From: a virus
Lineage: Duplodnaviria; Heunggongvirae; Uroviricota; Caudoviricetes
DNA length: 27,225 bases
Reading direction: 5' to 3' (one strand)
IMG/VR virus record: IMGVR_UViG_2541047770_000002
This document shows, one piece after another, positions 7,254-20,149 of this stretch (within the stretch, counting starts at the first letter, position 1; each line of letters opens with the position of its first letter). The notes under the pieces are model-generated. The model searched no databases, was not told the origin of the DNA, and saw only the letters and a program-made list of their open reading frames with translations. Made by a program: the position numbers and the translations under genes.

Positions 7254-8369
7254 TTACAGGCAGCGTGCGACAGCAGCCTCATAGCTGATGCCTTCTTTTT
7301 TGGACAGGGCCACTGCTTTCTGATGCAGGGCCAGACGCTCAGGATCGGCTTCCGCAAACTCTGCCACATCCACCTTCACCGTGTCGCCGACACGCTCTTT
7401 TGTGGCCTGTTCGGCGAAATTCATCACCGGCTCCCCGTCGGAGAGCAATGAACGAAAGGCGGTGGCCAGCGGTGTGCGGCTTTCCCCCTCAGCAAACTCC
7501 ACCGGCTTGTCGCCACCGGCGACGGCATCCAGCAGGGCAACCACCACGGAGGAGGCGCGGGGAGCCAGACGGCCCTCTGCGACCAGTTTTTCTGCAAAGG
7601 CCACATTGTCCTTATGCAGTTGCTCCTGTCTGACCTGTGCATCACGCGCATCGCGATCAGCAGCCTGCTGCTTCAGGCGGCGGTTCTCCTCCTGAAGGGC
7701 TTCAATCTCTTCTTTTGTCATCGATGATTCCTCGTTACTTGCGGAAGACGGCCCCGGGCCTGTCTCACTGAATTGTGCACCTGCTGCATCCTGCGACAGT
7801 GTGTCGCGGTACGCCTCTTCGCGCAGACTGTTGAGCTGCCATTCCGGCAGGACTTTTTCTGCCTCGTCCAGACTGAAGCGGGCGATCAGAAAATCGCGCA
7901 GCTTTCCCCACAGGGAGGCATTCGTGATGGCCTGCCAGTCGGCGAACTCCACCACACCTTCTTCCTGCTCACTGAAGGACACCTGTTTCAGCCCCTTGAC
8001 GGAAGGTGGCTGTGCCCCGAGAAAGCCCACATGGCGAAGGTAGAGCACGCCGGGCTTCGGATTGGACGGTGAATCCGGGAGGTAGAAAGAGGCGGACACT
8101 TTTTTGAATCGTCCGTCGGTGACCATCTCAGCAAACTGCGGGTCCAGCTGGGCAGGCTCTGCCATCAGATCGACGCCGCTGAGCGACAGGGCTTTCACCC
8201 AGCCCCACGCCGGGTCTTCCGTTCTGGGATGACCAATCACGAGTGGTGCTTCATGGACGGACGGGTCATAGGCTTTCACGCAGGCGGCAAGATCGTCTGG
8301 CGTGAACGGCAGTTTTTTGCCGTGCATATCGGTATGAGTACCGGCTTTAAAAATGTGAATGGCTGACAT
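7254..8369 (-). CDS. Head maturation protease / scaffold (Mu I-like)
   Basis: 371 aa; N-terminal domain followed by Glu/Ala/Gln-rich coiled-coil region (EEIEALQEENRRLKQQAADRDARDAQVRQEQ) typical of protease-scaffold fusion; precedes capsid gene. Confidence 0.75.
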   Translation of the reverse strand: MSAIHIFKAGTHTDMHGKKLPFTPDDLAACVKAYDPSVHEAPLVIGHPRTEDPAWGWVKALSLSGVDLMAEPAQLDPQFAEMVTDGRFKKVSASFYLPDSPSNPKPGVLYLRHVGFLGAQPPSVKGLKQVSFSEQEEGVVEFADWQAITNASLWGKLRDFLIARFSLDEAEKVLPEWQLNSLREEAYRDTLSQDAAGAQFSETGPGPSSASNEESSMTKEEIEALQEENRRLKQQAADRDARDAQVRQEQLHKDNVAFAEKLVAEGRLAPRASSVVVALLDAVAGGDKPVEFAEGESRTPLATAFRSLLSDGEPVMNFAEQATKERVGDTVKVDVAEFAEADPERLALHQKAVALSKKEGISYEAAVARCL

Positions 8370-8583
8370 TTTGCTGTCCCGCGTTATGTTGTCGGAGACA
8401 GTTTGTGAGAAATGCAGGCCCGGCGATTTTAATCTGCTTTAGAAAACATCAGGGGAGAAGGACAGGGAAAGCAATGCGGTGAACCGGAGGCGGTTATAAA
8501 ACAGAGGCTGTAAAGCCTTTATAAAGGTAATACAGCCCCTCATTCGCTGGCAATGATAAATCACCCGCCTGAAGAGAGAAAAC
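8370..8583 (-). promoter_or_regulatory. Non-coding gap inside late operon: likely terminator plus internal late promoter upstream of protease gene
   Basis: 214 bp without convincing ORF between G-like and I-like genes in an otherwise overlapping gene array; Mu has a C-dependent promoter before I at the equivalent position. Confidence 0.3.
8492..8522 (-). terminator. Putative intrinsic terminator after G-like gene
   Basis: On minus strand AAAGGCU-UUAC-AGCCUCU stem-loop followed by GUUUUAUAA. Confidence 0.3.
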
Positions 8584-15841: not shown

Positions 15842-15971
15842 GTGTGTCTCCTTATCTGGTGGAGACAGCATCACAAATACAGGGCGCGAAGGATTTTAAA
15901 GCGCGTTAAGAGAGCCGGGGATACGGGATGTGCAGGATAAACGATGAATTATTCACAGAGGAGAATACGAT
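15842..15971. promoter_or_regulatory. Divergent intergenic region: probable late-operon promoter (minus) and promoter/operator of gene 15972..16700 (plus)
   Basis: 130-bp non-coding gap between divergent start codons; contains small palindrome TGAATTATTCA at 15945..15955 resembling the half-sites of the repressor-ner operator. Confidence 0.3.
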
Positions 15972-16700
15972 ATGACGCAGACACTGAATCCGGTCATCAC
16001 TGTCACCGTGTCCGGTCCTGTGGGCAGCGGTAAAAGTTACATATTGGCGCGGATAGAGGAAGTGGTGAAACAGGAATTCGGAAACAGCGTCATTGTCGAC
16101 GCCGCAGACGTGGACGGTGAGCGCCGTATGAGTGGGGATGATCTGAGCACATGGCAGAAACCACGGGCTGGCACAGTGATCAGGCTGGAGGAATACACGG
16201 GACAGGGCCTGTTGTCATACGGCGAGGAGCGTATCTGTCGGACGAATGAGCTGCTGGATGTTATATGCCCCACGGGCCGGCAACCCTGGATACTGCCCGA
16301 TGCACTGCATGCCACCATTGCGGCACTGATGACAGTTTACGATCAGGAGCTGCTCATGAAGGAGTTACGTAAACTCACTGGTCAGTCAACAGAATGTTGT
16401 TCGTCCCCGAAGTACGGCAAACAGGAACACATCCCGATTAACCAGCCTCCCCGGTTCTTCGACGAATACCTTCTGACACCGGAAAATAAAGCTGAGCATG
16501 AAGAGATCAAAGCGGCGTTGTTCCGGGAAATCAGGAAGATTGCTGAAATGCAGTTGGGGGGCGGGCTGGACAGAGTGATGGCGAGAGGAGAATGGGCATC
16601 GCTGTTTGAAAGAGTTTCCCCGGAATTACTTCCCCTCGCACTGGCTATCGGGATTATGCAGACAGCGGATAAACCTCACTTACGTTCATTAAACACGTAA
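15972..16700 (+). CDS. Hypothetical protein with Walker-A-like motif (GPVGSGKS)
   Basis: 242 aa; strong RBS AGAGGAG 8 nt before ATG; N-terminal VTVSGPVGSGKSYIL motif; no further assignable domain by eye. Confidence 0.5.
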   Translation: MTQTLNPVITVTVSGPVGSGKSYILARIEEVVKQEFGNSVIVDAADVDGERRMSGDDLSTWQKPRAGTVIRLEEYTGQGLLSYGEERICRTNELLDVICPTGRQPWILPDALHATIAALMTVYDQELLMKELRKLTGQSTECCSSPKYGKQEHIPINQPPRFFDEYLLTPENKAEHEEIKAALFREIRKIAEMQLGGGLDRVMARGEWASLFERVSPELLPLALAIGIMQTADKPHLRSLNT

Positions 16701-17080
16701 CGCATAATCCGGGATACGCATTCAGCGATGACTGCATTTTCACCGGTTTTTACTGCATCCAGAAGTGACTCTTTAAATGGTACGGGCCGGGGCTGCAGAA
16801 AGGTCGGCATGGCATTGAGCAGACAGAGCGTTTTTTCCGTGAGGACGACATCAGCCGCTCCCACAGCCAGCAACTGAGAGTAACGAATATAGCTGTTATC
16901 CCGAAGCCATATCAGCGTATCAATAAAACACCGGCACTTTTTCTGGTCGTGATCAACCTGGTCCGGGATATCGAAAAAACCAGAATAAATCAAAACCTGA
17001 GGTGCCGGATGCGTGTTCAGTAATCGGCAGAATATTTTGCCGGTGAGTACATAAAAATCATCATTTAAGGAGTGCATCAT
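16676..17080 (-). CDS. Hypothetical protein (134 aa)
   Basis: ORF on late-operon strand, convergent 25-nt overlap with 15972..16700 and start codon overlapping the divergent start of 17079..17294; weak RBS (GGGGA). Coding status uncertain. Confidence 0.35.
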   Translation of the reverse strand: MMHSLNDDFYVLTGKIFCRLLNTHPAPQVLIYSGFFDIPDQVDHDQKKCRCFIDTLIWLRDNSYIRYSQLLAVGAADVVLTEKTLCLLNAMPTFLQPRPVPFKESLLDAVKTGENAVIAECVSRIMRYVFNERK

Positions 17081-17294
17081 GAATCCCCGATTAACGTTAA
17101 CAGAACATCAGCGCCGTGCTGAAGCAGTGAACAATGTTCTGGAAGATATTATCCGGTTATACCGCGGAGAACTGAGTGTCTGTCGTGCCGCTTTTCATTT
17201 TCAGGGAATACAAAAGCAGTTTGATACTTCTGTTTTTGCAGAAGGTATTACTTATGCCCTGGACCGGATAAGGTCAGAAAATCGCCCCGGATAA
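17079..17294 (+). CDS. Hypothetical small protein (71 aa)
   Basis: Near-ideal RBS AAGGAG with 6-nt spacer before ATG 17079; upstream of dam on same strand. Confidence 0.4.
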   Translation: MNPRLTLTEHQRRAEAVNNVLEDIIRLYRGELSVCRAAFHFQGIQKQFDTSVFAEGITYALDRIRSENRPG

Positions 17295-17348
17295 TCCCTA
17301 AACCACATTAACAGAAATCCCGCCATCCCTGCCGCATCATGAAAGAAC

Positions 17349-17380
17349 GACCAGCCCGGCACCCGAAAGCCGGGCTGGTC
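17349..17380. other. Perfect GC-rich hairpin (12-bp stem GACCAGCCCGGC, 8-nt loop)
   Basis: GACCAGCCCGGC-ACCCGAAA-GCCGGGCUGGUC 55 nt after stop of 17079..17294; no strong U-tract on plus strand, so either a weak terminator or a structured RNA/REP-like element. Confidence 0.4.
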
Positions 17381-17420
17381 ATCGCCCCACAGGAATGCGC
17401 TGTGAGCCGACCAAGGTTCA

Positions 17421-17466
17421 GTCAGTCTCGCGAGACCTGACCAGACTGCCATATTTTTTAATAATT
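17421..17466 (+). promoter_or_regulatory. Candidate dam promoter with overlapping palindromic operator
   Basis: Imperfect 21-bp palindrome GTCAG-TCTCGCGAGA-CCTGAC (17421..17441; central 10 bp perfectly palindromic) overlapping a -35-like TGACCA, 17-bp spacer, -10-like ATAATT, about 20 nt before the dam ATG. Confidence 0.3.
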
Positions 17467-17484
17467 GTAAAAGGCTTACAGATT

Positions 17485-18252
17485 ATGAAAATGCAGACAT
17501 TACCCATCGTGCCGTGGATTGGTGGCAAACGCCGCCTTGCAAAACACATTCTGCCGCTGTTTCCGGCGCATGAATGTTATGTGGAGCCGTTTTGTGGGGC
17601 AGCAGCGCTCTATTTTCTTAAGACACCCGGCAAGATCGAAGTCATCAATGATATCAACGGTGAACTGGTGAATCTGTACCGGGTGGTAAAGCATCACCTG
17701 GAAGAATTTGTCCGCCAGTTCAAATGGGCGCTGGTCAGCCGTCAGATCTACAAATGGCTGCAGATCACCCCGGAAGAAACACTGACGGATATCCAGCGTG
17801 CGGCACGGTTTTACTACCTTCAGAAGCAGGCGTTTGGCGGCAAGGTGGCAGAGCACAGCTTCGGTACCTCCACCACATCCCCGCCACGCTTCAACCTGCT
17901 GCGTATTGAAGAAGAACTGTCAGCGGCACACCTGCGGCTTTCCAGAACAGTCATAGAACACATGGACTGGCAACAGTGCATTGAGCGTTATGATCGTCCG
18001 CACACGCTGTTCTACTGCGACCCACCGTACCTGGGTACGGAAGGCTATGGTGTGGATTTTCCTGAAGGGAACTACTCGCGGCTGGCAGAGCTGGCCCGGT
18101 GCATCAGAGGAAAGATGATTATATCGGTCAACGATATCCCGGAAATGCGGCAGGTTTTTAACGGTCTGAACATTCACTGTGTGAAGGTCAACTACAGTCT
18201 TGCAGGAAAGGGAACACTACGGCGCGAACTTATTGTAAGTAATTTAGAGTAG
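17485..18252 (+). CDS. dam: DNA adenine (N6) methyltransferase, Dam family
   Basis: Translation aligns by eye with E. coli Dam motifs: PWIGGKRRL (vs KWAGGK), EPFCGAAALYF (vs EPFVGAGSVF), DINGELVNLY (vs DINSDLISLY), FYCDPPY catalytic motif. Start ATG 17485 (MKMQTLPIV...); track start 17395 is upstream in frame. Confidence 0.85.
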   Translation: MKMQTLPIVPWIGGKRRLAKHILPLFPAHECYVEPFCGAAALYFLKTPGKIEVINDINGELVNLYRVVKHHLEEFVRQFKWALVSRQIYKWLQITPEETLTDIQRAARFYYLQKQAFGGKVAEHSFGTSTTSPPRFNLLRIEEELSAAHLRLSRTVIEHMDWQQCIERYDRPHTLFYCDPPYLGTEGYGVDFPEGNYSRLAELARCIRGKMIISVNDIPEMRQVFNGLNIHCVKVNYSLAGKGTLRRELIVSNLE

Positions 18253-18277
18253 GCTCAGAAGGAGGTAAGTAGTCTTG

Positions 18278-18309
18278 CATAACAATGCACCTGATGGTGC
18301 ATTGTTATG
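18278..18309. terminator. Bidirectional terminator-type hairpin between convergent dam and membrane-protein gene
   Basis: 14-bp perfect inverted repeat CATAACAATGCACC / GGTGCATTGTTATG with 4-nt loop TGAT; 26 nt after dam stop and overlapping the stop of the minus-strand gene. Confidence 0.5.
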
Positions 18310-18742
18310 ATATCACTTTGATTATATTGAATAATCGCCTACCTGTTTGTAATAAACACAACATAGACATAACAACAAGCCCAATGAGAATAGCGGCTAC
18401 AATCTCTTGATGCTTACTTTGCAGCATCAACCCAATCAAACATGTCAACACCAACACTAGCAAAACTAAGCAAGTGTAGAATGCATCGGTCATCAGACGC
18501 TTGTAATGTCCGGTTTTTTGCATGTTTTTAAGTAACGGTTTATCAAGCAATGATGCAAGTAGTGCAATTGCTGTAATAATAAAACCTAACAACGTTGCAA
18601 AGACACTGGACAATGTAGTCATGAAGTTTGGGATTGCGGCTACTGGCATATGGGGCAACTTGAACCAGTAGAGAAAACCAATCCCACATCCAATCAATAA
18701 ACTAAGCAATAGGGCCGAGTTCATCTTCTCCAATATATGCAT
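18305..18742 (-). CDS. Small four-helix integral membrane protein, RexB-like in size, topology and position (homology unverified)
   Basis: ATG 18742 with GGGAGAG 5 nt upstream (alternatives 18766, 18724); about 145 aa with four hydrophobic helices; last gene of repressor-strand operon; AT-rich. From memory of lambda RexB (144 aa, 4 TM) there may be a shared TLSS-plus-hydrophobic motif, but this was not verified. Confidence 0.6.
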   Translation of the reverse strand: MHILEKMNSALLLSLLIGCGIGFLYWFKLPHMPVAAIPNFMTTLSSVFATLLGFIITAIALLASLLDKPLLKNMQKTGHYKRLMTDAFYTCLVLLVLVLTCLIGLMLQSKHQEIVAAILIGLVVMSMLCLLQTGRRLFNIIKVIS

Positions 18743-19595
18743 TGATACTCTCCCGGTTTTCAGCATACGCAGTATCGATTAGACGGTACATGGTTTCGGC
18801 TGGAGGGAAACGAGCGTCAGTAACTACCGATTGATAGGACGAAATACGCTCGGCAATCAAATCCACAGGATGGACAACACCATCAGCATCGAACACATCA
18901 ATTACAGCCTTTTTCGCCCCAAACTCGACTAACTCTTGCATAGCAAATTTTATATTCTGCTTAAGCCTACCATCACTATCGCCACGGCGAGTATTAATCC
19001 CCATTACAATTTGCATTGTATCGGCACCTGCATCACCAAGCAGTTGTAGTGTCTTTTGACTGAAATCAGTATCAGGGTAAAACTCAGGATTACGGGGGCG
19101 AGGAATCGTCAACTGGATTTTTTTCATTTTGACATCTCCTCTCATAAGCCTAGCGATTGCATCTTTTTCCAGCAAAGGTGCGGGCTTAACCTTTGAACCA
19201 AAGATAGTTGAAAGAAATGCACTAAAACGGCTTATACCACAAGCCATATGATTATAGTGCCAACCTATAACATTGATTCGAGGATAGAATACAAAGAAAT
19301 TGCGCTCAATGATCCCTTCATCCTTGGCAAGTGGAATAGGGGTAGACTGTTTCCCTGGTGCACCTTTATCCGGAATGTTCGAGTTGCGAAATTTTCTCAA
19401 CTCTCCACTAAAAGAACCATCCGCGCGTTTTTTCAACCCCCAAATTTCTCTAGTAAAACCCTCATGGTTTGAAGAGGAAGGGCTCTGTTTATCAATTACA
19501 GATTGAAAAGCATCTCCGAGATTTGCCAGCTGATCTGTGGCCTTAAACGATAGCTGATGAAACTCAATACGATAATTTCTCACATCACCACTCAT
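18702..19595 (-). CDS. Hypothetical 297-aa soluble protein in the rexA position (no recognisable family)
   Basis: ATG 19595 with AAGGA 8 nt upstream; no TM segments; AT-rich codon usage unlike phage backbone; 3' end overlaps start of the membrane-protein gene (operon). No similarity to lambda RexA apparent by eye. Confidence 0.6.
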   Translation of the reverse strand: MSGDVRNYRIEFHQLSFKATDQLANLGDAFQSVIDKQSPSSSNHEGFTREIWGLKKRADGSFSGELRKFRNSNIPDKGAPGKQSTPIPLAKDEGIIERNFFVFYPRINVIGWHYNHMACGISRFSAFLSTIFGSKVKPAPLLEKDAIARLMRGDVKMKKIQLTIPRPRNPEFYPDTDFSQKTLQLLGDAGADTMQIVMGINTRRGDSDGRLKQNIKFAMQELVEFGAKKAVIDVFDADGVVHPVDLIAERISSYQSVVTDARFPPAETMYRLIDTAYAENRESINAYIGEDELGPIA

Positions 19596-19717
19596 ACGAT
19601 TAATCCTTAACGCGGAAAGTTCAGATGGTTAGTGCAAACAGCACATCCTACTGTTTAAATCAGCGCATATAACGAAGAGGTTTGATAACCTTGTCAATTG
19701 TTCTCATTGGGAATAGA
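19596..19717 (-). promoter_or_regulatory. Intergenic region between repressor and 297-aa gene; candidate internal promoter
   Basis: Minus-strand consensus -35 TTGACA (plus 19692..19697) with imperfect -10 candidates 17-19 nt downstream; could allow expression independent of the repressor promoter. Confidence 0.25.
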
Positions 19718-20134
19718 TTAACCCACATTTTTTAACCGCTCAATCGTTGCGGATAATTCCTTCAGTTGTTTTTCCATCTCGATCACTCGCTGTTTTTCCG
19801 CAGCGCCTCGCAGAAGATCGTTACGAACCTCGGGGTCTAGCTGCTTTAAAAGCTCAAGCATAGTAAGGTCAGCTTGGCTAAACTGCACTTGCGTCGGAGT
19901 TACGTCTACTTCTTTTGATAAACCTTGTTTTCTACCTGTTAGCAACCAATCTAAAGAAACCCCCTTTTCTTCTGCGATGTTTATGCAAATTGCATAAGGC
20001 ACAGAATCACGCTTCCTCCAACTTGCAAGTGTCTGCCTATTGACGTTAAGCGCTCTTGCCAACTCACTATCATTCTCTGCTTGGAATAGTGACATTAACC
20101 GGGAAAGCACAGCGTTAACATCTTTGTTATTCAT
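19718..20134 (-). CDS. Prophage repressor, CI-type helix-turn-helix (no peptidase domain)
   Basis: 138 aa from ATG 20134 (track start 20149 is GTG); HTH segment LARALNVNRQTLASWRKRDSVPYAICINIAEEKGVSLDWLLTG typical of phage CI-type repressor N-terminal domains; divergent from the ner-A-B early operon. Confidence 0.7.
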   Translation of the reverse strand: MNNKDVNAVLSRLMSLFQAENDSELARALNVNRQTLASWRKRDSVPYAICINIAEEKGVSLDWLLTGRKQGLSKEVDVTPTQVQFSQADLTMLELLKQLDPEVRNDLLRGAAEKQRVIEMEKQLKELSATIERLKNVG

Positions 20135-20149
20135 TTTGCGTAATTCCAC

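Follow-up and report, generated by a model that had tools for sequence, protein, structure and literature searches.

In a stretch of Caudoviricetes DNA of 27,225 nucleotides (nt) taken from IMG/VR (record IMGVR_UViG_2541047770_000002, analysed whole and hereafter called the window), which is a BcepMu-like transposable prophage, we found evidence of a conserved structured RNA leader in front of a DNA methylase gene. Comparative sequence analysis indicates that this leader spans about 140 nt (17345-17484) and is composed of a three-way junction of the helices P0, P1 and P2, followed by the hairpin P3 and by a small hairpin P4 (Table 1). We hypothesise, with moderate confidence, that it acts as a bistable switch which hides the ribosome-binding site of the methylase gene under late, activator-driven expression, so that control of the enzyme would be exerted on translation and not by a repressor. 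What is of interest here is the conserved leader RNA; the gene itself is an ordinary and very common prophage orphan methylase. A first-pass annotation of the window had proposed a Dam-family methylase, carried as an independent unit bounded by strong hairpins and with a palindromic operator in its promoter.

To study the leader, we compared the 110-190 nt that precede the methylase gene across 80 IMG/VR relatives. The 51 non-identical sequences were aligned with MAFFT without fitting (A1), and a covariance model was built from this alignment; 80 loci from GTDB species-representative genomes, which had been fetched through the protein alone, provided an independent set. In A1, 81.9% of the cells are paired; sliding the 3' partners by 1-3 columns lowers this figure to 32-42%. 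Changes on both sides were found in 28 of the 31 pairs. The percentage of paired cells, the pairs and cells with both-side changes and the covariation score were reached in none of 500 shuffles, a control that ignores phylogeny, and the observed value for further pair types was reached in 10 of the 500. The GTDB set gave a very similar picture, with 83.5% of the cells paired versus 34-44% after sliding, and both-side changes in all 31 pairs. The covariance model matches 69 of the 80 IMG/VR loci, always on the coding strand, and 65 of the 80 GTDB loci (E<0.01), where the matches end either at the methylase start or, where the gene com intervenes, 150-330 nt upstream of it. The leader of com-type phages is found 5' of com and not between com and the methylase gene, and all full-length matches lie on the coding strand and end at the start of one of these two genes. 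When viral contigs were scanned in the reverse direction with the P2 motif alone, 82 of the 96 matches had the N-terminal motif of the methylase 60-120 nt downstream; the remaining ones are mostly truncated contigs or chance matches. No Rfam 15 family matches the window at its gathering score (for 17200-17600, matches with E up to 10 are noise only), and we found in the literature no described RNA motif 5' of phage methylase or com genes. The leader RNA is apparently undescribed.

The helix closing the junction, P0, joins a purine-rich stretch on the 5' side of P1 to the bases that come right after CCAAGG and has 85-90% of its cells paired, with double changes in 5 of 6 pairs in A1 and in 6 of 6 in alignment A4; among its compensatory variants are GAGC/GCTC, CAGC/GCTG, AGAGGGC/GCCCTCT, AGGAAGC/GCTTCCT, CAGGGC/GCCCTG and CGGTGC/GCACCG. 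Both-side changes were observed in all 13 modelled pairs of P1 (82-86% of cells paired), and P2 has 96-98% of its cells paired, with the variants GCAG/CTGC, CACTG/CAGTG, CACCG/CGGTG and CAUGUG/CACAUG. At the site of P3 the relatives hold other hairpins (GTCATCGATGAC, GTTCTCGAGAAC, CCTACGTAGG, CTGATGGCCATCAG and many more), and every pair of this hairpin shows both-side changes in the viral and in the GTDB alignments. The junction motif CCAAGG can, in an alternative fold, pair with the AGCCU motif that follows P3. In the window the latter motif reads AGACTGCC, and it is complementary both to the upstream CCAAGGCU and to AGGCUU at the Shine-Dalgarno sequence; with its upstream partner 78% of the cells are paired, there being little variation to test. 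The pairs of P4 are UUUUCA/UGAAAA in many relatives and UUUUCG/CGAAAA in one of them (L098), with 66% of the cells paired in A1 and a weak covariation, and this hairpin is found mostly in the enterobacterial group.

Many of the matches are close relatives, which, with shuffles that ignore phylogeny, is what one would point to in arguing that there is no functional element here and that the hairpins reflect the shared ancestry of a recently spread cassette. We find this hardly credible, since identity among the methylases falls to 63% over hosts from the beta-, gamma- and deltaproteobacteria, every stem changes its sequence with its pairing kept, and sliding the partners, which preserves relatedness, nevertheless lowers the pairing from 82-84% to 32-44%.

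The second line of evidence concerns the region where translation of the methylase would start. The 3' strand of P2, together with the AGCC that follows it, forms a segment (CTGTGAGCC) with a 9-base-pair (bp) complementarity, including one G.U, to GGCTTACAG in the initiation region. Because 17400-17408 can pair with 17473-17481 instead of with the 5' strand of P2, the leader is predicted to have two near-isoenergetic folds. Across 48 representatives with distinct P2 strands, cognate duplexes have a mean energy of -10.85 kcal/mol versus -8.19 +/- 0.34 kcal/mol for permuted ones (0 of 5000 permutations, register-free). The two partners change together: compensatory pairs of segment and target are CUGUGAGCC/GGCUUACAG, CUGCAAGCC/GGCUUGCA, CGGUGAACC/GGUUCAC, CACAUGAGCC/GGCUCAUG and CUGUGAGCU/AGCUCAC, and further co-changing pairs are CUGCAAGUC/GGCUUGCAG, CUGCGAGCC/GGCUCGCA and CAGGUGAGC/GCUCACC. 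This complementarity, like the structure of the leader and its association with the gene, is supported by the comparative analysis. A specificity-swap test of free-energy differences (ddG) against the window sequence was uninformative, the window duplex being so strong that all comparisons came out negative. When folds were computed without constraints, at least 6 of 16 relatives had the long-range helix in their minimum-energy structure, and most of the rest, the window among them, had P2; since the minimum-energy folds are split in this way the two states of the leader are probably near in energy. P3 is extended in the long-range fold, where the conserved CCAAGGCU pairs with the likewise conserved AGCCUA, and P4 forms beside the Shine-Dalgarno sequence; this fold would therefore explain both the conserved motifs and the U-run, which looks like the tail of a terminator.

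That same U-run invites the alternative that the leader acts on transcription or in trans, be it as an attenuator, as a put-like antitermination RNA located directly behind a late promoter or as a stand-alone small RNA of about 110 nt ending at the U-run (17454-17459). Such a role would suit a leader that begins at the predicted transcription start and whose enterobacterial members have a U-run within 12 nt after P3, and it would also suit two outlying occurrences. In one contig (L208, 4797-4971, minus strand) a diverged 5' half of the leader stands before a gene for a 570-amino-acid (aa) beta-helix, tailspike-like protein, and in the Haemophilus phage SuMu (L164, 718-878) the leader model gives a weak match (E=0.0065) immediately 5' of com, the SuMu methylase belonging to another subfamily. 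Because of these two cases the leader may go with the late operon and not with one enzyme family. We nevertheless consider an action on transcription or in trans quite unlikely: the U-run is 6-12 nt away from the stem, is missing in most non-enterobacterial members and is better read as the 5' arm of P4, a terminator scan made no call at P3 and the U-run, and neither a trans-acting RNA nor an antiterminator would need a co-varying complementarity to the initiation region. The reading of P3 and the U-run as an intrinsic terminator or attenuator was dropped in favour of the pairing of P4 with the A-run before the Shine-Dalgarno sequence.

Table 1. Positions of the leader elements, the methylase gene and other features in the window
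Feature	Position	Strand or direction	Details
P0, 5' strand GAAC	17345-17348	+	pairs with GTTC 17416-17419; closes the three-way junction round P1 and P2
P1 hairpin	17349-17380	+	12 bp, 8-nt loop; upstream hairpin of the first-pass annotation
P2 hairpin CACAG-N7-CTGTG	17388-17404	+	between P1 and P3
Segment complementary to the initiation region, CTGTGAGCC	17400-17408	+	3' strand of P2 plus AGCC; pairs with the 5' strand of P2 or with 17473-17481
Junction motif CCAAGG	17411-17416	+	near-invariant across alignments
P3 hairpin GTCAG-TCT-[CGCG]-AGA-C-CTGAC	17421-17441	+	palindrome of the first-pass annotation
Post-P3 motif AGACTGCC	17443-17450	+	local form of the conserved AGCCUAMC
P4 hairpin (U-run/A-run)	17454-17472	+	just 5' of the Shine-Dalgarno sequence; AATAAT in the loop
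Initiation region	17470-17484	+	Shine-Dalgarno AAAGG 17470-17474; GGCTTACAG 17473-17481, overlapping it and ending 3 nt before ATG
Methylase gene, 255 aa	ATG 17485, stop 18250-18252	+	D12-class N6-adenine DNA methyltransferase
TAAAC-CAC-ATTAA, a (Y)TAA-N6-TTAA dyad	17299-17311	+	candidate Mor/C-type late-activator site; left boundary of the conserved methylase module
CATCAT, -10-like hexamer	17335-17340	+	20 nt 3' of the TTAA motif; no -35; predicted start near 17347
Downstream hairpin	18278-18291/18296-18309		14 bp, perfect; between the convergent methylase gene (+) and 153-aa open reading frame (-)
Late genes	up to 15874	leftward
Three small genes of unknown function	15972-17294		between lysis operon and methylase cassette; 242 aa phrog_3787, 134 aa phrog_2266 (minus strand), 71 aa phrog_4490
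Two-gene insert	18305-19595	-
CI-type repressor	19718-20149	-
Early/transposition operon	start 20223	rightward

The imperfect 21-nt palindrome seen in the first-pass annotation is present, with a perfect 10-bp core (TCTCGCGAGA, 17426-17435), and it corresponds to P3. The operator reading would make it a DNA site bound by a dimeric repressor and lying over the -35 of a sigma-70 promoter (CTGACC-17-AATAAT, 17437-17465) that would drive the methylase. A promoter-like sequence matching at 9 of 12 positions does overlap the right arm, and the variants of P3 are nearly always perfect palindromes including the four central bases, as would be expected of a two-fold symmetric DNA site. Matches of this quality are nonetheless at chance level (7 in 5.2 kb versus 7.1 expected), as are perfect 10-bp palindromes in the window (24 versus 26.6 +/- 4.8 in shuffles), and neither the -10 AATAAT nor the -35 is conserved in the relatives. 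The half-site sequence differs between phages whose methylases are 80-90% identical, with the hairpin potential kept, and the palindrome is one part of a larger element in which the other helices co-vary. A sequence-specific repressor operator appears very unlikely because the palindrome occurs as a single copy (no second one in the window with fewer than 3 mismatches), has no similarity to the repressor/early-promoter (c/ner control) region and is shared in the same form by prophages with different immunity regions, and because a 2-nt central insertion, which would shift the spacing of the half-sites, distinguishes near-identical relatives (CCTACGTAGG versus CCTACCGGTAGG). Regulation of the gene through its upstream sequence, as the first-pass annotation had suggested, is very probable in itself; the complementarity to the ribosome-binding region points to control at the RNA level in place of a palindromic operator.

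Several observations weigh against the switch hypothesis. When the alternative helix, the extended P3 and P4 are evaluated together, column by column, in A1, 75% of the cells are paired, versus 22-48% after sliding, and the covariation does not exceed that of the shuffles; in one com-type clade, where the 3' strand of P2 reads CUGCGUUU, the alternative helix is weak or absent. P0 has just 4 bp in the window, and the transcription start (about 17347), which is a prediction from sequence, falls inside its 5' strand and may clip it. A comparison of G.U with A.C oppositions, as an indicator of the strand, was ambiguous, P3 favouring the plus strand and P1 having more A.C than G.U, and the diverged leader half of L208 precedes a late gene that is not a methylase. 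Finally, P3 is palindromic through its loop bases, which a simple RNA hairpin does not need and which hints at a constraint at the DNA level or between molecules. P3, and possibly P1, could be under selection as a cruciform, as a site for a symmetric protein or for RNA homodimerisation, on top of the hairpin role or replacing it. Perfect palindromes of even length, 8 nt or longer, form the apex of P3 in 49 of the 58 distinct variants, the expectation for a self-complementary 4-nt loop being 1 in 16. The excess of A.C over G.U in P1 on the plus strand, as well as the U-rich run after P1 on the minus strand, would agree with such a constraint. On the other hand, there is no conserved half-site, the loops of P1 and P2 are ordinary, P3 belongs to an element that has a fixed orientation and is linked to the ribosome-binding site, and template-switch mutation ("quasipalindrome correction") could yield perfect palindromes without any function. 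We regard a constraint of this type as unlikely, with a small though real chance of being correct.

Upstream of P0 we found a candidate promoter. Relatives with unrelated left flanks become alignable from exactly the motif TAAAC-NNN-RTTAA, which in the window marks the left end of the conserved module. Allowing at most one mismatch, the dyad (Y)TAA-N6-TTAA occurs 10 times in the window versus 2.6 expected (0 of 100 shuffles), with exact intergenic copies at 15897 (plus strand), before the 242-aa gene, and at 8429-8441 (minus strand), before a late structural operon. The layout TTAANAG-N20-CAKNAT recurs at 15906-15938 (with CAGGAT), and in the relatives the distance of 20-21 nt between the TTAA motif and the -10-like CAKNAT is kept, while that to P0 varies. 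Several relatives have one copy of the motif between a divergent lysis operon and the methylase gene. The methylase promoter is therefore likely to be placed at 17299-17340, would lack a -35 and may depend on a Mor/C-type late activator of the phage; the enrichment and the position of the motif are as expected for such a promoter, in which the dyad is centred near -40 to -50. The places where the promoter-like module recurs probably make up the late-activator regulon. The related Escherichia phage PhiKM has an annotated C homologue, and the activator gene of the window phage would lie outside the window. A reporter fusion beginning at the palindrome would leave this promoter out.

The candidate promoter, the leader and the gene form one mobile cassette (about 17299-18252), and under the switch hypothesis the methylase would be transcribed late from the activator-dependent promoter, with a start near 17345. 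In the junction fold P0, P1 and P2 would be formed, the initiation region would be free and translation would be possible. In the other, long-range fold, translation would be off, the initiation region being clamped by the 3' strand of P2. The balance could be tipped by co-transcriptional (kinetic) folding, by a late protein of the phage, by a ligand, or by dimerisation of the RNA via the self-complementary apex of P3. Translation of a potentially harmful DNA-modifying enzyme could in this way be limited to the right time, and the enzyme itself would presumably serve in anti-restriction DNA modification late in infection. Our inferences from these data concern the promoter, the effector and the direction in which the switch acts. 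The leader of the MS2 maturation gene uses a long-distance sequestration of the Shine-Dalgarno sequence, with a transient decoy hairpin and "delayed RNA folding". By analogy with this leader and with the expression platforms of translational riboswitches, the segment complementary to the initiation region would here be held, alternatively, in a local hairpin (P2). In contrast to both, the present leader has no homology to them in sequence or structure and no Rfam match, and kinetic control and a ligand are candidates only. In the same prophage, a hairpin GTCTCC-N9-GGAGAC (15849-15869), in the minus-strand leader of the first lysis gene, has the lysis Shine-Dalgarno sequence in its 3' arm and is conserved, with variation, in relatives; a similar one, CTGTCTCCG...CGGGACAG, is found at about 8372-8400, before the gene whose start is at 8369. 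It may be that ribosome-binding sites are sequestered in other late leaders as well.

With regard to the enzyme, the first-pass annotation was right in assigning it, on account of its DPPY motif, to the broad class that includes Dam, and its identification as a GATC-specific Dam does not follow. The protein matches Pfam PF02086 with E=8e-30 and 104.8 bits (cut-off 22), its residues 11-238 covering positions 1-252 of the 253 in the profile. The catalytic motif IV, DPPY, occupies residues 179-182 (nt 18019-18030), and the AdoMet motif I (FxGxG-like) reads FCGAA at residues 36-40, the F, the G and the AA pair of the latter being invariant in the family alignment. The orthologue in strain EC958 has the identical start codon choice in RefSeq, and the longer open reading frame from 17395 is an over-extension. 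The nearest relatives of solved structure by phmmer are DpnM (E=1.2e-17) and the Dam of E. coli, EcoDam (E=2.5e-16), with which the protein shares fold class and catalytic motifs, and it passes, barely, the cut-off of the broad model TIGR00571 (116.5 versus 114.85 bits). It scores far below the cut-off of the E. coli Dam equivalog model NF008152 of NCBIfam (71.5 versus 441 bits). In the structure of EcoDam with DNA, K9, N120, L122 and R124 read GATC. In an alignment made with HMMER to 2G1P, in which the loop is uncertain, EcoDam residues K9, N120, L122, R124 and P134 correspond to P, G, K, A and S/P in the window protein, and R137 and Y138 to R and F. Because the score is far under the Dam cut-off and the residues that contact GATC are replaced, GATC specificity should not be assumed, and the sequence evidence places the enzyme in the broad Dam/D12 class and not as an orthologue of the GATC Dam. 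Assays with DpnI or MboI may for this reason be the wrong test of its activity. GATC itself is moderately rare in the whole window (94 observed versus 140 expected from a second-order Markov model, ratio 0.67), a mild depletion only, and CTAG (0.64) and TATA (0.61) are about as depleted.

The methylase family extends, at 63-100% identity, across the Proteobacteria, with beta-, gamma- and deltaproteobacterial hosts and many temperate phages; the mean column identity of 20 diverse members is 75%, and proteins of the window family have 253-264 aa with DPPY at about residue 177-179. Searches with Pfam, PADLOC and PHROGs found no nuclease or restriction-modification domain in the neighbouring proteins (71, 134, 242, 153 and 297 aa), so far as sequence can tell making the methylase an orphan (solitary) enzyme with no adjoining cognate restriction gene. 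One large group of relatives has an open reading frame for a Com zinc-ribbon protein immediately 5' of the methylase gene, and in many contigs of about 33-38 kb the methylase gene stands at the very end, which is the position of mom in phage Mu. It appears from these layouts that in related Mu-like phages the methylase often occupies the mom slot, frequently straight after com. A prophage-borne D12-class orphan of EC958, M.EcoMIV, has no homologue of more than 65% identity with a known site and is transcribed at very low level in the lysogen (Forde et al., PMC4659465). We could not confirm that M.EcoMIV (EC958_1101) is the gene of the window, as no prophage was found in HG941718 at 1.08-1.165 Mb.

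In its logic the proposed switch is comparable to the com/mom operon of Mu. Mom is a cytotoxic late function that depends on the activator C for transcription and on Com for translation (PMC3378877), and RNA pairing can close off the initiation region of mom, with the outcome depending on a hairpin next to it (PMC6483171; PMC3378877). The methylase of the window would likewise be a late-expressed DNA-modification gene of a transposable phage with a sequesterable initiation region, and many of its relatives have com directly 5' of the gene. In contrast to Mu, the window, which covers part of the prophage only, has no Com-like open reading frame (no small one with CxxC...CxxC outside the transposase gene), and where com is present the leader precedes it. 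Mu itself has a short leader only and gives no match to the leader model, and the architecture found here, a three-way junction with a palindromic hairpin, is unrelated to it, as are the sequences. The candidate promoter resembles the late promoters that C or Mor activates in Mu (Pmom, Plys, PI, PP) in that it lacks a -35, has a dyad 5' of a -10-like hexamer and is repeated before several late operons, and further in the motif shared between divergent lysis and methylase units in relatives and in the C-type activator annotated in PhiKM. Pmom of Mu depends on C (PMC3378877); the promoter of the window differs from it in that its site, (Y)TAA-N6-TTAA, is a putative one, in that the activator gene is outside the window and in that it has no GATC/OxyR layer. 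Four relatives (L043, L045, L046 and L056) are without the structured leader and have 4-5 GATC sites within about 60 nt 5' of the methylase gene, clusters which recall the Dam/OxyR-controlled GATC cluster of Pmom. In FluMu-type prophages, the mom slot is held by Hin1523, Hia5 and Nma1821, which are non-specific m6A methyltransferases (Drozdz et al. 2012, PMC3299994). Similarly to the enzyme of the window they are D12-related DPPY proteins; they are encoded downstream of com in the mom slot and are silent in lysogens. As a proxy for this type, no Hia5 sequence being compared, we used SuMu_53 (277 aa, com-linked, COG3392, DPPY near residue 192), to which the window protein has a BLASTP match that covers the motif only (E=0.02). 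Because the subfamily differs, the non-specific activity is not transferable to the enzyme of the window.

As for the surroundings of the cassette, positions 16900-18210 of the window have 97.9% nucleotide identity to PhiKM (genus Bcepmuvirus), whose record lists genes for a DDE transposase, an ExeA-like ATPase, Gam, GemA and the C-type late activator, besides those for lysis, head and tail. Matches to the cassette are found in 546 of 5,426 complete E. coli genomes, 497 of them covering at least 80% of the query, and the sequence type 131 (ST131) strain EC958 is included. In PhiKM and EC958 the immunity region follows directly after the methylase gene, with the repressor next in EC958. The homology of the window to both stops near 18210, and the junction of an insert falls within the final ~40 nt of the methylase gene. 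The inserted segment (18210-19700) has two minus-strand open reading frames, 18702-19595 and 18305-18766, for a 297-aa protein (phrog_7651) and a 153-aa multi-pass membrane protein (phrog_8552); the pair is missing from PhiKM and EC958, and neither protein has a Pfam match or a PADLOC defence-system match. These two genes could be prophage cargo, for example for superinfection exclusion or defence. In several relatives the methylase cassette directly adjoins the lysis operon, and for this reason the three small genes between the two in the window would represent a variable cargo region.

The flanking hairpins of the first-pass annotation both exist and are perfect. The upstream one, P1 (17349-17360/17369-17380), and the downstream one are the sole inverted repeats in the window with arms of at least 12 nt, the shuffles giving 0. 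P1 is no boundary or terminator of the unit on the coding strand: it lacks a U-tract, is placed 3' of the likely promoter and accompanies the methylase gene in relatives whose left flanks are unrelated. On the minus strand P1 is followed by a U-rich run (GUUCUUUC) and might double as a terminator there; near its base an A.C opposition is conserved (GACC...GGCC in about half of the members). The downstream hairpin is a possible terminator, was not called by the terminator scan, and belongs to the segment missing from PhiKM and EC958. The idea of an independent unit holds in the comparative sense alone, with homology to other phages beginning at 17299 and homology to PhiKM and EC958 lasting until near 18210.

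Orphan phage methylases shape the methylomes of their hosts and help phages to escape restriction, and one subfamily from Mu-like prophages (Hia5) has become a standard reagent for chromatin footprinting. The leader described here appears to be an RNA motif outside Rfam with clear covariation and hundreds of examples, so that it lends itself well to structure probing and to an effector search. Much more tentatively than for the switch itself, and with doubts that outweigh our confidence, we put forward that it represents a new and widespread class of bistable riboregulators, specific to the mom-slot operons of transposable and related temperate phages of beta-, gamma- and deltaproteobacteria, in which the junction would sense a trans signal (a late protein, a metabolite such as S-adenosylmethionine or S-adenosylhomocysteine, or RNA concentration by way of homodimerisation at the apex of P3) and free the ribosome-binding site only in lytic growth. 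For the biology of these prophages, the leader offers a concrete and testable mechanism by which a methylase may be kept silent and then be expressed late.

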